37,288 nt of DNA from a virus. Where the stretch lies: UHGV virus genome UHGV-1407012; one strand, written 5' to 3'. Every line of letters begins with the position of its first letter. The stretch's first letter is position 1. Both the position numbers and the translations under genes were made by a program. Shown one piece after another: positions 3,357 through 13,237 of the stretch. A model generated the notes under the pieces. It saw only the letters and a list, made by a program, of their open reading frames with translations, was not told the DNA's origin and searched no databases.

Positions 3357-3472
3357 AATAAGACCTCAACTCTTTTCCATCCGTCACGTAATTTACGGGT
3401 GATTCGTTCAAGTAAAGATTCATTTAGTTGGAAGGCACCCATGCGAGCGCCTCCCGCGATTGCGTAAATCAT
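3341..3472 (-). CDS. cIII: cIII-like FtsH (HflB) protease inhibitor (43 aa)
   Basis: Core ...ESLLERITRKLRDGWKR... matches the lambda CIII helix as recalled; AAGGAA RBS; position in the pL operon. Confidence 0.6.
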   Translation of the reverse strand: MIYAIAGGARMGAFQLNESLLERITRKLRDGWKRVEVLLCAMK

Positions 3473-3496
3473 GGGTGGTTCCTTATGTTGGTTTTA

Positions 3497-4465
3497 TTAG
3501 TAGGTTATTTTTGTTGCGAATACTTCGCCTTTTACGATGGCTGTTATGATATTTTTAGCAATATCTTCTGATGCGCCAACCTTGATAAGGTCAGCAAGTA
3601 TTTTGTTATTTACTTCTTTCCGGTGAGCTTTATCCTTTGCTCTACGCTCTTCTTCGTCCTTGATTCTTTTTTCTTCTGCTATTCTGGCTTGCTCTTTTGC
3701 TTCAGCCTCGCGACGGATTCGTTCAGCCTCCTCCTGTGCTTTTCTGCGTTCTGCTTCAATTGCTGCCTGCTTTTCTCTTTCAGCTCGTTCTGCTGCCTCT
3801 TTTGCTTCGCGCTGTGCTCGTTGCTCGGCTTCAATGCGTTCACGCTCTGCACGTTCCGCTGCGGCCTTAGCTTCTGCTTCTCGCCTTGCTGCTGCTTCAA
3901 TTTCGGCTTTTGCCTTTGCTTCGGCTTCTGCTCTGGCTTTCTCTTCAGCTTCTCTTTTTAATCGTTCTTCATGCTCTCGCTTTTCCTGCTCCGCTTTGAG
4001 TCTTGCCTCTTCTCTTTGGCGGTCAAATTCGCGATCCATCAAAATCGCTATTTCATGGTCAGACTCAATTTGCTTTGCGAGAGCTTCAGCTGCTGCCTTA
4101 GCTTCTTCTTCGGCTTTAATCCGCGCCTGTTCTTCCTCATAATCAGTAAGAGGCTGGCGCGCCTTGGCTTTCAGTTCATCAAGGCGATCACGCACCGTCT
4201 TGCGGTTGGCATCAATTAGCTTTGGAATTTCCTTCAGTTCAGCAACAAGGTCTTTGCCAAGACCATCGAGATATGTTTTCGTCTGTGCAACTTTAAACGC
4301 CAGAGAAGCGATCTCCTTTCTGCCCTTTGCCGTTGTGATATCAGGCACAAAGGACATAACTTCACGTTCAACCTTTTGGAGAATTTCTTCAATCTGGTCA
4401 GCAGACTGAAATACAATCATTGCATTTGCTTTTTCAATAACAACTAAATCTGTTACTTCACTCAT
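3497..4465 (-). CDS. Coiled-coil protein with long Glu/Ala/Arg/Lys low-complexity repeat (322 aa)
   Basis: ATG 4465 with GGAGG RBS (track ORF extends to TTG at 4519); about 150 aa of EAKA/RREAE heptad-like repeats between structured N- and C-terminal regions. Confidence 0.7.
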   Translation of the reverse strand: MSEVTDLVVIEKANAMIVFQSADQIEEILQKVEREVMSFVPDITTAKGRKEIASLAFKVAQTKTYLDGLGKDLVAELKEIPKLIDANRKTVRDRLDELKAKARQPLTDYEEEQARIKAEEEAKAAAEALAKQIESDHEIAILMDREFDRQREEARLKAEQEKREHEERLKREAEEKARAEAEAKAKAEIEAAARREAEAKAAAERAERERIEAEQRAQREAKEAAERAEREKQAAIEAERRKAQEEAERIRREAEAKEQARIAEEKRIKDEEERRAKDKAHRKEVNNKILADLIKVGASEDIAKNIITAIVKGEVFATKITY

Positions 4466-10589: not shown

Positions 10590-10672
10590 TGACCATCTAC
10601 ATTACTGAGCTAATAACAGGCCTGCTGGTAATCGCAGGCCTTTTTATTTGGGGGAGGGTGAATCGTGGCTGA
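10589..10672 (+). CDS. Possible 27-aa hydrophobic peptide (MTIYITELITGLLVIAGLFIWGRVNRG)
   Basis: AAGGAGG RBS; ATG overlaps the helicase stop (TGATG); coding region contains the terminator hairpin. Confidence 0.3.
   Translation: MTIYITELITGLLVIAGLFIWGRVNRG
10617..10649 (+). terminator. Rho-independent terminator after the replication operon
   Basis: AGGCCTGC-loop-GCAGGCCT stem followed by TTTTTATTT. Confidence 0.5.
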
Positions 10673-10888: not shown

Positions 10889-11152
10889 ATGGACGAATCA
10901 AGAAAGCAGTTTGAAGAATGGTTTGAAAATTACACCGGATGTGATCCTAAAAATAAAATATACGCCAATATGGTTGAGATGTATTGGCAAGCGTGGCAGG
11001 CATCGCGAGCAGCTATCGAGATTGAGCTGCAAAAGCCAAAGAAAGGCCCACTTCCCGGTGATTATCACATTGGCTATGACTCAGGTGCAGAATCGCAATA
11101 CGAAAGCGATGTAGAGGCTATCCGCGCCGCTGGAATCAAAGTGAAGGAGTGA
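10889..11152 (+). CDS. Hypothetical nin-region protein (87 aa)
   Basis: ORF with GAGGG RBS. Confidence 0.6.
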   Translation: MDESRKQFEEWFENYTGCDPKNKIYANMVEMYWQAWQASRAAIEIELQKPKKGPLPGDYHIGYDSGAESQYESDVEAIRAAGIKVKE

Positions 11153-11156
11153 GTAT

Positions 11157-11411
11157 ATGCCATTTATAAAATTAACCATGCAATGCAGCATCTATCAGCC
11201 ACCAAGCACAGGCGTGATAGAAAGCACCAGAAGTGCATATGAGCCCTTGTACGTTAACTCTGACAACATCGAAACCCTATTTGAGGCCGGGATTACGATT
11301 GTAAGAATGGCAAGTGGTGAGCGGTTCGATGTTATTGAGAAACCAGAAGCTATTTTGGCGTTAATTAATCCATGCGTGCAGAAGGTGAGCAATGAGGAAA
11401 CTAACGTTTGA
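11157..11411 (+). CDS. Hypothetical nin-region protein (84 aa)
   Basis: AAGGAG RBS 7 nt upstream of ATG. Confidence 0.55.
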   Translation: MPFIKLTMQCSIYQPPSTGVIESTRSAYEPLYVNSDNIETLFEAGITIVRMASGERFDVIEKPEAILALINPCVQKVSNEETNV

Positions 11412-11808
11412 ACTAAGAAGCCCCATCCATCAGCAGAACGCCATTCAAGCTATCCAGCAAATCCTTCCAGACCCAACCAAACCAATCGTAGTAACCATTC
11501 AGGAACGCAACCGCAGCATTCGGCAAAATGCACGCCTTCACGCGATGCTATCTGAAATAAGTAAGAAGGCTACATATCATGGAAAAGCAAGAAATATTGA
11601 GTTTTGGAAGGGGTTATTCGTTTCTGGTTGGCAGATTGCAACCAACCAGCACCCTGAGATTATATCAGGGTTAGAAGGTGAGCTAATAAACATCAGAGAG
11701 AGTACAGCGACTCTATCTGTAAAAAAAATATCCGAAATAATGGACTACATAGAAGCATATTGTGCCATGAACTCAATTCATCTTAGCGAATGGAGGAATT
11801 ATGATTGA
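11392..11808 (+). CDS. ninB: NinB (Orf family recombination mediator), C-terminally truncated by an HNH insertion
   Basis: N-terminal ~110 aa (MRKLTFELRSPIHQQNAIQAIQQILPDPTKPIVVTIQERNRS...) track lambda NinB as recalled; frame ends ...SEWRNYD. Confidence 0.8.
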   Translation: MRKLTFELRSPIHQQNAIQAIQQILPDPTKPIVVTIQERNRSIRQNARLHAMLSEISKKATYHGKARNIEFWKGLFVSGWQIATNQHPEIISGLEGELINIRESTATLSVKKISEIMDYIEAYCAMNSIHLSEWRNYD

Positions 11809-12403
11809 GGTTTGGGTAGATATCGAAGGGATTCCATTTTATCAGGTTAGCAATAAAGGAAATTTCAGGTCTATTACGAGGGAGGTTACAGTAACATCAA
11901 CCAGACAGAGGCCATATAAGAAAATAATTAATGGCACTAGTGTAAAACCATTCATGTGCAAGTCGACAGGATATCTTCAAATAAAGGTATACGGTAAGAA
12001 ATACAGCGCCCACAGGATAGTTGCGAAAGCATTCTGTACAGGGTTCTGTGATGGCTTGGTAGTTAATCACAAAAATGGGCGAAGAGATGACAATAGGGCT
12101 GATAACCTTGAATGGGTATCACATTCTGAAAACTCAAAACACGGATATAAACAAAATGGAAGAATACCTGTATCGCTAGGTAAATTTAGTGGTGACCATC
12201 CTGCCAGTAAAGCTGTTATTTCTACTGACATGAAAACTGGGGAGGAGGTTTATTATGAAGCAGCTATGGATGCTGTCAGAGAAGGATTTGATAGTTCGTC
12301 AATTAGTCGTTGCTGTAATGGCGAAAGCTCATATCACAAAGGAAGATTCTGGCGATTTGCAAATGAAACAATGAAAGCGCGATGGGGAGACAGGGCTGCA
12401 TGA
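11801..12403 (+). CDS. HNH homing endonuclease (NUMOD4-like N-terminus plus HNH_3-like domain) whose last ~15 codons derive from the ninB 3' end
   Basis: [17 protein letters not shown] and [25 protein letters not shown] motifs; C-terminus ...[10 protein letters not shown] matches the lambda NinB C-terminus; own GGAGG RBS; AT-rich. Confidence 0.8.
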
Positions 12404-12582
12404 GGCGACAGCGACGAAGTATCACCGACATAATCTGTGAAAACTGCAAATACCTTCCAACGAAACGCTCCAGAAATAAACGCAAGCCAATCCCAAAAGA
12501 ATCTGACGTAAAAACCTTCAACTACACGGCTCACCTGTGGGATATCCGGTGGCTTAGAGAACGTGCGAGGAAAACAAGGTGA
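12400..12582 (+). CDS. ninD: NinD-like zinc-ribbon protein
   Basis: [23 protein letters not shown]... with ATGA overlap onto the upstream stop. Confidence 0.7.
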
Positions 12583-12749
12583 TTGACCCAAATCGAAGTT
12601 ACGAACAAGAAAGCGTCGAGCGGGCTTTAACGTGTGCTAACTGCGGTCAGAAGCTGCATGTGCTGGAAGTTCATGTGTGCTCCGATTGCTGCGCAGAACT
12701 GATGAGCGATCCGAATAGCTCAATGTACGAGGAAGAAGACGATGAGTGA
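12579..12749 (+). CDS. NinF-like small Cys-rich protein (56 aa)
   Basis: GTG start overlapping the ninD stop; CANCGQ...CSDCC motif; below ORF-track cutoff. Confidence 0.55.
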
Positions 12750-12954
12750 TTACCTGAAATGGTATCTCTGCCACCGCTGGTTAATTAAGTTTGCTGTAAA
12801 AGACTGGATGACAGCGGATGCCAACAAGCTTAAACAACGAAAGGACTATTACTACGCCAGAATGAAGGAAAACTACTGCTCAATCCGCACTCGCATATTT
12901 ATTAAAAAAGACCTTCAGTCAATTCTTCAATTGCGAGGGAAGGTAAATGGCTAA
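12742..12954 (+). CDS. Hypothetical nin-region protein (70 aa)
   Basis: ORF overlapping neighbours by a few nt. Confidence 0.5.
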   Translation: MSDYLKWYLCHRWLIKFAVKDWMTADANKLKQRKDYYYARMKENYCSIRTRIFIKKDLQSILQLRGKVNG

Positions 12955-13237
12955 TCTACGCAAAGAAGCGCGCGGCAGAGAATGCCAGGTACGTATTTAC
13001 GGCATATGCAATGGCAATCCTGAAACTACAGTTCTGGCACATTACAGGATGGCTGGAATTTGCGGAACGGGAATGAAGCCTGACGACCTGATCGGTGCAT
13101 GGGCTTGTAGTGACTGCCACGCGGAGATCGACCGACGCACCCATAACCTCGACAACAAAGACGCCAGACTTTACCACCTCGAAGGCGTGATCAGGACGCA
13201 GGCGATACTGCTGAAGGAGGGGAAGATTAAGTCATGA
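12947..13237 (+). CDS. DUF1364-like (YbcO-type) Cys/His-rich nin-region protein
   Basis: MANLRKEARGRECQVRIYGICNGNPETTVLAH...WACSDCHAEID; GAGGGAAGG RBS; family assignment from memory. Confidence 0.55.
   Translation: MANLRKEARGRECQVRIYGICNGNPETTVLAHYRMAGICGTGMKPDDLIGAWACSDCHAEIDRRTHNLDNKDARLYHLEGVIRTQAILLKEGKIKS

Follow-up and report, generated by a model that had tools for sequence, protein, structure and literature searches.

The UHGV virus genome UHGV-1407012, a stretch of 37,288 nucleotides (nt) that we refer to as the window, carries the nin region of a P22-like phage. In this region the gene ninB (orf) is followed by an open reading frame (ORF) for an HNH endonuclease, and this ORF closes on the last codons and the stop of ninB. 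A preliminary description of the DNA, made from the letters alone, had read the arrangement as a homing endonuclease gene that was inserted into ninB and disrupted it. Our analysis points, with a probability that we put at about 0.65, to a free-standing lineage of I-HmuI-type homing endonucleases specialised on the 3' end of ninB/orf, which travels as a cassette made up of an immune ninB and the nuclease gene.

A cassette replaced part of ninB

We compared the window with the phages HK022 and lambda. The left flank of the foreign segment (11380-11517) was 97.8% identical to HK022, and the flank was 87% identical to lambda, with a long conserved stretch included; both matches ended at 11517. 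On the right, positions 12373-12749, which hold the ninB tail, ninE and ninF, matched HK022 continuously at 96.3% identity. Between these matching flanks HK022 has 284 nt (ninB codons 43-137), against 855 nt in the window. Across 11518-12372 no nucleotide similarity to lambda or HK022 was found, and the similarity of ninB to lambda returned only at 12373. The left junction lay within the highly conserved VTIQERNRS box and the right junction nine codons before the ninB stop.

The HNH gene was absent from HK022, lambda, HK542 and P22, and HK542 and HK022 had the same ninB-ninE junction, free of the HNH gene. Presence and absence of the gene were therefore polymorphic at one defined site among otherwise homologous genomes, as the comparison of HK022 with the window showed. 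The preliminary description had proposed to define the insertion endpoints from insertion-free alleles of related phages. Such alleles exist (HK022, lambda and HK542), and the comparison with HK022 placed the boundaries at 11517/11518 and 12372/12373. The simple insertion that it assumed did not hold, as the cassette replaced part of an HK022-type ninB.

The base composition was in line with these boundaries. The guanine-cytosine (GC) content was 39.5% in the ninB segment 11518-11793, 39.2% in the body of the HNH gene, 47.6-48% in the flanks and 61% in the 31-nt tail, so that a single block of about 39% GC spanned the ninB body and the HNH gene. The lower GC content noted before for the HNH ORF was real (39.2% against 47-48% in the flanks), but the low-GC tract runs over the whole of 11518-12372 and takes in the 3' two-thirds of ninB. 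Because the composition agrees with the match boundaries, we take the foreign unit to be the diverged ninB body together with the HNH gene, and the nine terminal codons to belong to the displaced resident ninB.

Two candidates for a clean insertion were rejected. An insertion after W134 (W134/K) fits lambda between W137 and K138 by eye, but protein alignments put ...HLSEW of the window opposite ...KWSDE of lambda, and the W of ...HLSEW belongs to the GGAGG leader of the HNH gene. The locus L019 (NinB ...INLS, HNH ...RF-SDASRLEIEWATRWGKS) looked like a pristine insertion; however, a 10-N scaffold gap lies upstream and the NinB frame is uncertain. We also looked for terminal inverted or direct repeats bracketing the insert and found none, which ruled out a transposon-like element.

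In 65 phage records and 77 of 5,426 complete Escherichia coli genomes, all matches to the cassette's ninB portion broke off at the HNH junction. The diverged ninB body was always linked to the HNH gene, both at 39% GC, and this fits co-conversion during homing and ordinary module exchange alike. If the exchange was ordinary, the cassette would be nin cargo moved by general or Red/RecA recombination, the ninB tail would be the scar of one illegitimate crossover, and the nuclease would be inactive or used for something else, such as cutting competing phages. Such mosaicism would be consistent with a left boundary that lies within a long conserved stretch common to lambda and HK022, with the variable gene after the tail (dam, ninC-like, ninE or ninD), as in modular exchange, and with the lack of a dedicated promoter and of terminal repeats. 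Its fit to the wider distribution of the nuclease was poorer, as described below.

The HNH ORF ends in NinB sequence

The HNH ORF ends in KARWGDRAA and a stop, which is the terminus of NinB. Aligned with the final 31 nt of lambda ninB, positions 12373-12403 of the window differed at one nucleotide only (30/31 identical; pairwise E=1e-9), and the score of the tail peptide against lambda NinB was reached by 0/2000 shuffles. On this evidence the last nine codons of the HNH ORF are a genuine residual 3' end of ninB, fused in frame and using the ninB stop, as had been suggested before. The ORF was also as first described, with 200 codons in the +1 frame relative to ninB (ORF listing), its own GGAGG ribosome-binding site and an HNH_3 domain in Pfam. 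The ATGA overlap with the next gene stood as well (HNH stop at 12401-12403, ATG at 12400), but that gene is ninE by its Pfam match and not ninD.

Similar tails were found in relatives of the HNH protein. Their extensions beyond ...WRF aligned specifically to lambda NinB residues 118-146, with GTEHGVKWADEAKAA, SDASRLEIEWATRWGKS, AHAFGTQRGVEWSPTSLGRAA and GDRHGVRWSDEARA as examples beside KARWGDRAA of the window. For at least 10 distinct tails the lambda NinB alignment scores were reached by 0/500 shuffles. The NinB remnant ranged in length from about 27 codons down to 2, and in Salmonella phage SEN22 only GCCGCATGA was left, that is AA and the stop of the ninB tail. NinB proteins of the same clade without an HNH gene carried a lambda-like tail themselves, P0021 ending in ...KKWSARWGA and P0026 in ...SERWAA, each followed by the stop.

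The remnant was also seen in loci where the upstream gene is no longer ninB. In L138:1423-2130 the HNH relative ended in AERGVVWSDRARQEIVDDWESA, which matched lambda NinB residues 122-139 (0/2000 shuffles), and the upstream ORF of 112 amino acids (aa) had no Pfam match and was not NinB. By sequence, L138 keeps a fossil of NinB although no NinB lies upstream. In L134:1031-1504 the HNH gene lay behind a DUF1367 gene and had a weakly NinB-like tail, HGVRWSE... (31/2000 shuffles). Together the L138 and L134 tails show that remnants persist after the NinB body has been exchanged.

We also considered ANETM and the short tails of some relatives (ADERMAA and similar) as decayed forms of the NinB motif SDEAR. 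This idea was attractive, found no statistical support and was set aside as speculation.

The nuclease resembles I-HmuI

The Pfam search of the HNH ORF returned NUMOD4 (E=4.9e-13), HNH_3 (E=2.3e-11) and an I-HmuI NUMOD-like domain (E=9e-4, below the Pfam cutoff), and the protein was assigned to PHROG 59. With phmmer against all PDB sequences, I-HmuI (1U3E) was the sole significant match (E=2.9e-14), with HNH residues 55-186 aligned to 1U3E residues 36-170 of 174. The AlphaFold2 model, made with 43 homologues, had a predicted local distance difference test (pLDDT) score of 92.9, with its last core strand at residues 182-186 and a tail helix at 189-199 for which the pLDDT was only about 69. Foldseek against the PDB gave 1u3e (E=1.1e-12, probability 1.00, template modelling scores of 0.56/0.62) and nothing else at E<=0.001. 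As the 1U3E alignment and the last strand of the model both end at residue 186 (...FWRF), the conserved fold is predicted to stop there and to leave a 14-residue tail outside it.

The residues H71, H90, N98, N102 and N111 were invariant in the 43 homologues, and N89-H90 of the window protein aligned with the motif DH of I-HmuI. The protein had the HNH beta-beta-alpha-metal motif with a His general base and Asn ligands, and the predicted model showed the elongated DNA-binding architecture with a NUMOD-like helix-turn-helix end. By sequence and predicted structure the ORF is a homing-endonuclease-type HNH protein, I-HmuI-like, and this part of the preliminary description was borne out.

I-HmuI of Bacillus phage SPO1 and the window protein are about 30% identical and have a common architecture, with an N-terminal beta DNA-binding region, the HNH_3 motif and the C-terminal NUMOD-like helix-turn-helix. 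Unlike I-HmuI, the window protein has an extra NUMOD4 segment at its N-terminus and the 14-residue tail, which is partly captured host-gene sequence. The gene for I-HmuI sits in a group I intron that interrupts a DNA polymerase gene, whereas the window HNH gene is free-standing and intron-free.

The fact that I-HmuI itself is intron-encoded would suit an intron or an intein, with splicing that restores an intact NinB at the RNA or protein level. A search for group I intron structure had been proposed, and we searched 11000-13000 against Rfam at E<=10. The results showed no intron family, groups I and II included, and two chance matches (a microRNA and a long non-coding RNA). In addition, hardly any of the insert lies outside the ORF, the ninB body differs from the ninB remnant both in frame and in allele of origin, and no Hint or intein domain was found by Pfam. 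We regard splicing as practically excluded and treat the gene as free-standing.

NinB of the window

The NinB protein of the window matched Pfam NinB (PF05772) with E=2.5e-40 over model positions 2-129 of 131, and PHROG 72 with E=3.7e-42. Residues 1-42 were the same as in HK022 NinB (42/42), while the residues from 43 to the end were 25% identical. The abrupt end at ...SEWRNYD was correctly noted in the preliminary description; however, the lambda-like character that it gave to about 130 residues applies at high identity only to residues 1-42. It had also called the gene disrupted, but the whole Pfam NinB domain was intact and only the alpha5 region was missing or replaced.

In alignments, window NinB ended about 12 residues before lambda/HK022 NinB, short of the remaining helix alpha5 of lambda. 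The C-terminal helix alpha5 with the equivalents of lambda R132, W137, R140 and W141 was absent from the protein, and the final nine residues of the alpha5 region are now carried by the HNH ORF. In lambda Orf the alpha5 mutations R132A, W137A, R140A and W141F caused only a modest loss of DNA binding (PMC4118853). Since these mutations lower DNA binding only modestly, the cost of the alpha5-less arrangement is probably small. Window NinB probably stays functional without the helix.

A Pantoea-type branch (L013:2501-2941; P0012, P0013, P0015, P0019 and P0020) had a NinB without the usual stop near the HNH start. In this branch the ninB frame stayed open for 32 nt inside the HNH gene, in a frame other than that of HNH, and gave NinB proteins of 146 aa with unrelated tails (...YAGDMERIRF). 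The NinB residues beyond ...IKL appear, from the sequences, to be unconstrained leader sequence.

The captured alpha5 segment could also have a role of its own, by letting the nuclease dock on the ring of truncated NinB, or on the DNA or the single-stranded DNA-binding protein (SSB) that NinB works with, so that the two would form a split-protein machine for cutting and loading. Such a pair would correspond, in two ORFs, to the Orf-HNH fusions of Gram-positive phages, with a site-specific nick handed to the recombination mediator. However, many relatives have lost nearly the whole tail (193-aa forms ending in ...ERMAA), tails come in freely varying lengths and the helix predicted for the window tail is of low confidence, and we consider docking very improbable.

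Distribution and linkage of the pair

The NinB-HNH pair was present in more than 60 phage records, and the HNH gene was found in 76 of the 5,426 complete E. coli genomes. The pair of Shiga toxin (Stx) 2-converting phage 86, gp71/gp72 (noted there as Lahn2 ORF138/ORF200), and those of APC_JM3.2 and others showed 97-100% protein identity to the window pair. Diverged pairs with the same layout were found in Salmonella phage SEN22 (gp44/gp45), Yersinia, a Pantoea metagenome-assembled genome, Serratia, Trabulsiella, Camelimonas, Mixta and metagenomic contigs. The downstream neighbour in the Stx-phage pairs and SEN22 was dam, ninC-like or ninD, in contrast to ninE in the window. The 8-nt overlap between the HNH start and the ninB stop was identical in SEN22, Yersinia, L009, L010-L012, L020 and L024, and relatives had purine-rich leaders (GATGGAGGTAGATATGA and GACTGGAGAAAATATGA) equivalent to the GGAGG of the window.

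We scanned the loci with profile hidden Markov models for NinB and HNH. In the first 101 loci, every close HNH relative (E<=1e-52) with upstream DNA available lay directly 3' of a NinB gene, and in IMG/VR 42 of 49 close relatives followed NinB. None of the HNH homologues at about 30% identity had NinB upstream. A profile search of genome contigs returned mostly distant NUMOD4-HNH genes and added four close loci; it served as a negative control. The NinB partners fell into at least four divergent NinB lineages, one of them detected by PHROG 72 only.

The same slot was also used by another nuclease. In L009 a NinB belonging to the same clade was followed, at 3410-3958, by a different protein (HNH_3 with a weak AP2 match, PHROG 99), again with the 8-nt overlap. 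This protein ended in ...AIDWARRFGETKRAA and a stop, a tail resembling the NinB C-terminus (51/2000 shuffles). Recombination of nin cargo without a homing enzyme leaves unexplained the near-exclusive location of the HNH subfamily 3' of NinB in at least four divergent lineages, the second HNH family in this slot and the recurrent NinB remnants of varied length at the 3' ends of the ORFs. It also does not account for a catalytic motif that is intact and conserved, and we regard plain mosaicism as unlikely.

In three IMG/VR contigs (L122:1035-1493, L124:1044-1493 and L134:1031-1504) the gene before HNH was DUF1367 (Pfam E=1e-20 to 4e-29) and not NinB. This suggests that DUF1367 can replace NinB at this nin position and may be its functional analogue.

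Selection, decay and a possible partnership with NinB

Between genomes, synonymous sites were saturated and nonsynonymous divergence (dN) was 0.09-0.40, with similar dN for ninB and the HNH gene in each genome pair. The ratio of nonsynonymous to synonymous divergence (dN/dS) was far below 1 for both genes. The saturated synonymous sites and the low, matched dN therefore indicate long linked descent under purifying selection. By these sequence measures the event is neither recent nor local, and the pair is ancient and has diverged together in other genera.

Damaged copies were found as well. P0124 and P0127 (E. coli, 190-191 aa) were frameshifted HNH copies that diverged after ...STDMKTG/L, at the G-rich run GGGGAGGAGG (about 12238-12247 in the window), and had lost the C-terminal DNA-binding part; they look like decay in some E. 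coli prophages. In L121:326-1351, an E. coli-type viral contig, a transposase ORF truncated the HNH protein by its N-terminal 46 residues and removed ninB. We take this transposase, recognised by eye, to be IS5/InsH-like. In L025:2372-3090 (Mixta sp.) a ninB-linked HNH gene broke off after ...FRELGKR and resumed, beyond about 720 bp of sequence unrelated to it, at ...GKRGNCLGKFSS....

The HNH protein could instead be a domesticated partner of NinB, the two forming a functional recombination module. The nuclease would supply nicks or ends, and NinB would load RecA or Beta onto single-stranded DNA coated with SSB. The co-divergence of the pair across genera with dN/dS far below 1 and the conserved start/stop overlap would both be expected of such a module. 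All NinB proteins at least 59% identical to window NinB whose context or C-terminus was examined were linked to HNH, and the Gram-positive NinB-HNH fusions (DUF968) have been read as functional collaboration (PMC2034487; PMC4118853). However, the ninB genes of lambda, P22, HK022 and HK542 work without HNH, few of the E. coli genomes have the HNH gene (76/5426), and members free of HNH occur within the same NinB clade. The unrelated HNH architecture of L009 in the same slot, the same HNH subfamily with a NinB fossil tail behind DUF1367 or other genes, and the frameshifted, insertion sequence-cut and interrupted copies also argue against a fixed partnership. Neither window protein matched DUF968 in Pfam, and I-HmuI, the closest relative that has been characterised, is a homing enzyme. 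Taking both sides, we consider it rather improbable that the nuclease has become a partner of NinB.

Proposed homing into ninB and the evidence against it

In the homing reading that we favour, the enzyme would nick or cut a lambda/HK022-type ninB that lacks the HNH gene. The cut site would probably lie near the ...GVKW/SDEA... codons (GGCGTTAAGTGG/TCAGACGAAGC, codons ~124-131), although this target is a guess. Recombinational repair would then copy the nuclease gene and, by co-conversion, the diverged ninB next to it, and in the P22-like phage of the window this would have exchanged codons 43-137 of an HK022-type ninB for the cassette 11518-12372. The endonuclease ORF, which has no stop of its own, reads through nine ninB codons and so keeps the ATGA coupling to ninE, and selection would favour ending on the ninB stop, where the ATGA restart of the downstream gene is kept. 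The constant inheritance of the cassette as one unit, and the position of its left edge in conserved sequence, would both follow from cleavage and co-conversion. Cleavage of ninB and homing by the HNH protein are what we infer, with indirect support from the empty (HK022) and occupied alleles and from the fidelity of the HNH lineage to its site.

Several results weigh against this reading. A synthetic empty junction, in which the diverged ninB body is joined to the tail, was absent from 50,697 phage records and 5,426 E. coli genomes, and because no empty allele was found, recent homing into the diverged ninB type is not visible. The long co-divergence and the purifying selection fit a useful domesticated gene equally well, and the double crossover relative to HK022 could be ordinary mosaic recombination without a nuclease break. 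I-HmuI is a nicking enzyme and also cuts intron-containing DNA, so by analogy the classic model of immunity through target disruption may not apply here. In the shuffle test the short tails of SEN22 (ADERMAA), L010 and L013 were not statistically NinB-like; a NinB origin is not proven for every tail, and we do not claim it for all of them.

Comparison with other endonuclease systems

Free-standing homing endonucleases of phages that move by intronless homing include the seg and mob genes of T4, for example mobE (PMC2790892). The window locus resembles these systems in having a stand-alone nuclease gene in or beside a conserved phage gene, polymorphic among related phages, and in a nuclease inherited with flanking diverged sequence, a pattern that fits co-conversion and ordinary module exchange alike. 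It differs from them in that the ORF is translationally coupled at both ends and, lacking a stop codon itself, closes on host-gene codons, and in that the lineage keeps to a single host gene, ninB, in many bacterial genera. The mobE gene in nrdA of Aeromonas phage Aeh1 reportedly splits its host gene.

The DUF968 proteins of Gram-positive lambdoid phages are fusions of NinB/Orf with HNH (PMC2034487; PMC4118853), and there too the Orf mediator is physically linked to an HNH-fold nuclease. However, those fusions are one polypeptide with a zinc-finger HNH, whereas the window has two ORFs in different frames with an HNH_3 of the I-HmuI type. To judge from the sequences, the NinB-HNH linkage of the window looks like invasion and not like domain fusion.

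Layout of the locus and neighbouring features

The coordinates of the locus are given in Table 1. The ATG of the HNH gene is buried in the final codons of ninB, and the resulting 8-nt overlap of start and stop (ATGATTGA) is, by its sequence, an arrangement for translational coupling. Counts of promoter-like and terminator-like sites were not above those of shuffled sequences, and no such sites flanked the HNH gene. As no promoter, terminator or bracketing repeat stands out, the HNH gene appears to be expressed within the nin operon through coupling at both of its ends.

Table 1. Positions of the ninB-HNH-ninE features in the window
Feature	Coordinates	Strand	Remarks
ninB/orf gene	11392..11808	+	138 aa; complete NinB domain; short non-canonical C-terminus ...HLSEWRNYD, then stop
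HK022/lambda-type 5' part of ninB, codons 1-42	11392..11517	+	Left homology arm; left mosaic boundary
Low-GC replacement cassette, 855 nt	11518..12372	+	Diverged ninB body (codons 43-138) and HNH gene minus its last 10 codons
GGAGG, ribosome-binding site of the HNH gene	11792..11796	+	Within the last ninB codons; direct reading of the sequence
HNH endonuclease ORF, I-HmuI-like	11801..12403	+	200 aa; predicted fold to residue 186 (12358), tail residues 187-200
8-nt overlap ATGATTGA, HNH start and ninB stop	11801..11808	+	ORF listing, direct reading
Residual 3' end of displaced lambda/HK022-type ninB, codons 138-146 and stop	12373..12403	+	Last 9 HNH codons
ninE	12400..12582	+	Pfam NinE E=3.2e-43; ATG overlaps the HNH/ninB stop as ATGA

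A NinF gene follows ninE (Pfam). Upstream of ninB, on the same strand, an 84-aa ORF at 11157-11411, with its stop region overlapping the ninB start, matched the flagellar/swarming family FlbD in Pfam (E=9.7e-6; 25.5 bits against a cutoff of 24.7 bits), an unusual family for a phage nin region. Further upstream, at 10618-10641 (+), a strong terminator-like hairpin with an 8-bp stem and 6 GC pairs, followed by TTTTATTT, separates the DnaB-like helicase gene from the nin genes. Lambdoid phages have a tR2-type terminator at this position. In L017:5041-5567, on a contig with another ninB-HNH pair, a DnaB-like helicase gene had a weak Pfam match to Hom_end_hint (intein). If this match is real, the replication/recombination region of that phage would hold two homing-type elements.

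Implications for ninB and the nin region

Public records already list the gene and recognise it as HNH, the element is of a known kind, and the locus reveals no new mechanism. In more than 60 phages and 76 E. coli genomes the gene is annotated, as 'HNH endonuclease', 'HNH homing endonuclease' or, in E. coli RefSeq, 'NUMOD4 domain-containing protein', and the SEN22 record already says 'homing endonuclease'. The annotations that we read for Stx2-86, SEN22 and the E. coli copies made no mention of a ninB-derived tail or of a replacement. Curtis et al. marked HNH boxes in their ninR maps without discussion. Our literature searches on ninB together with HNH or homing endonuclease returned no account of the arrangement, the ninB-derived tail, the replacement structure or the specificity of the lineage for ninB.

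As a point of annotation, the 'HNH endonuclease' of such phages closes with 9 residues of NinB sequence. The 138-aa NinB, a variant that naturally lacks alpha5, could serve to probe the role of this helix. The locus offers an example of a homing-type nuclease that has settled in an operon cheaply, as it borrows the host stop and the ATGA restart and spares the host domain, and its cassette would also bring its own uncut copy of the target gene. Across many Proteobacteria, the HNH lineage appears to be dedicated to the ninB/orf of lambdoid prophages. An enzyme that proves active would offer a concrete driver for the well-known mosaicism of the nin region, Shiga-toxin phages included.

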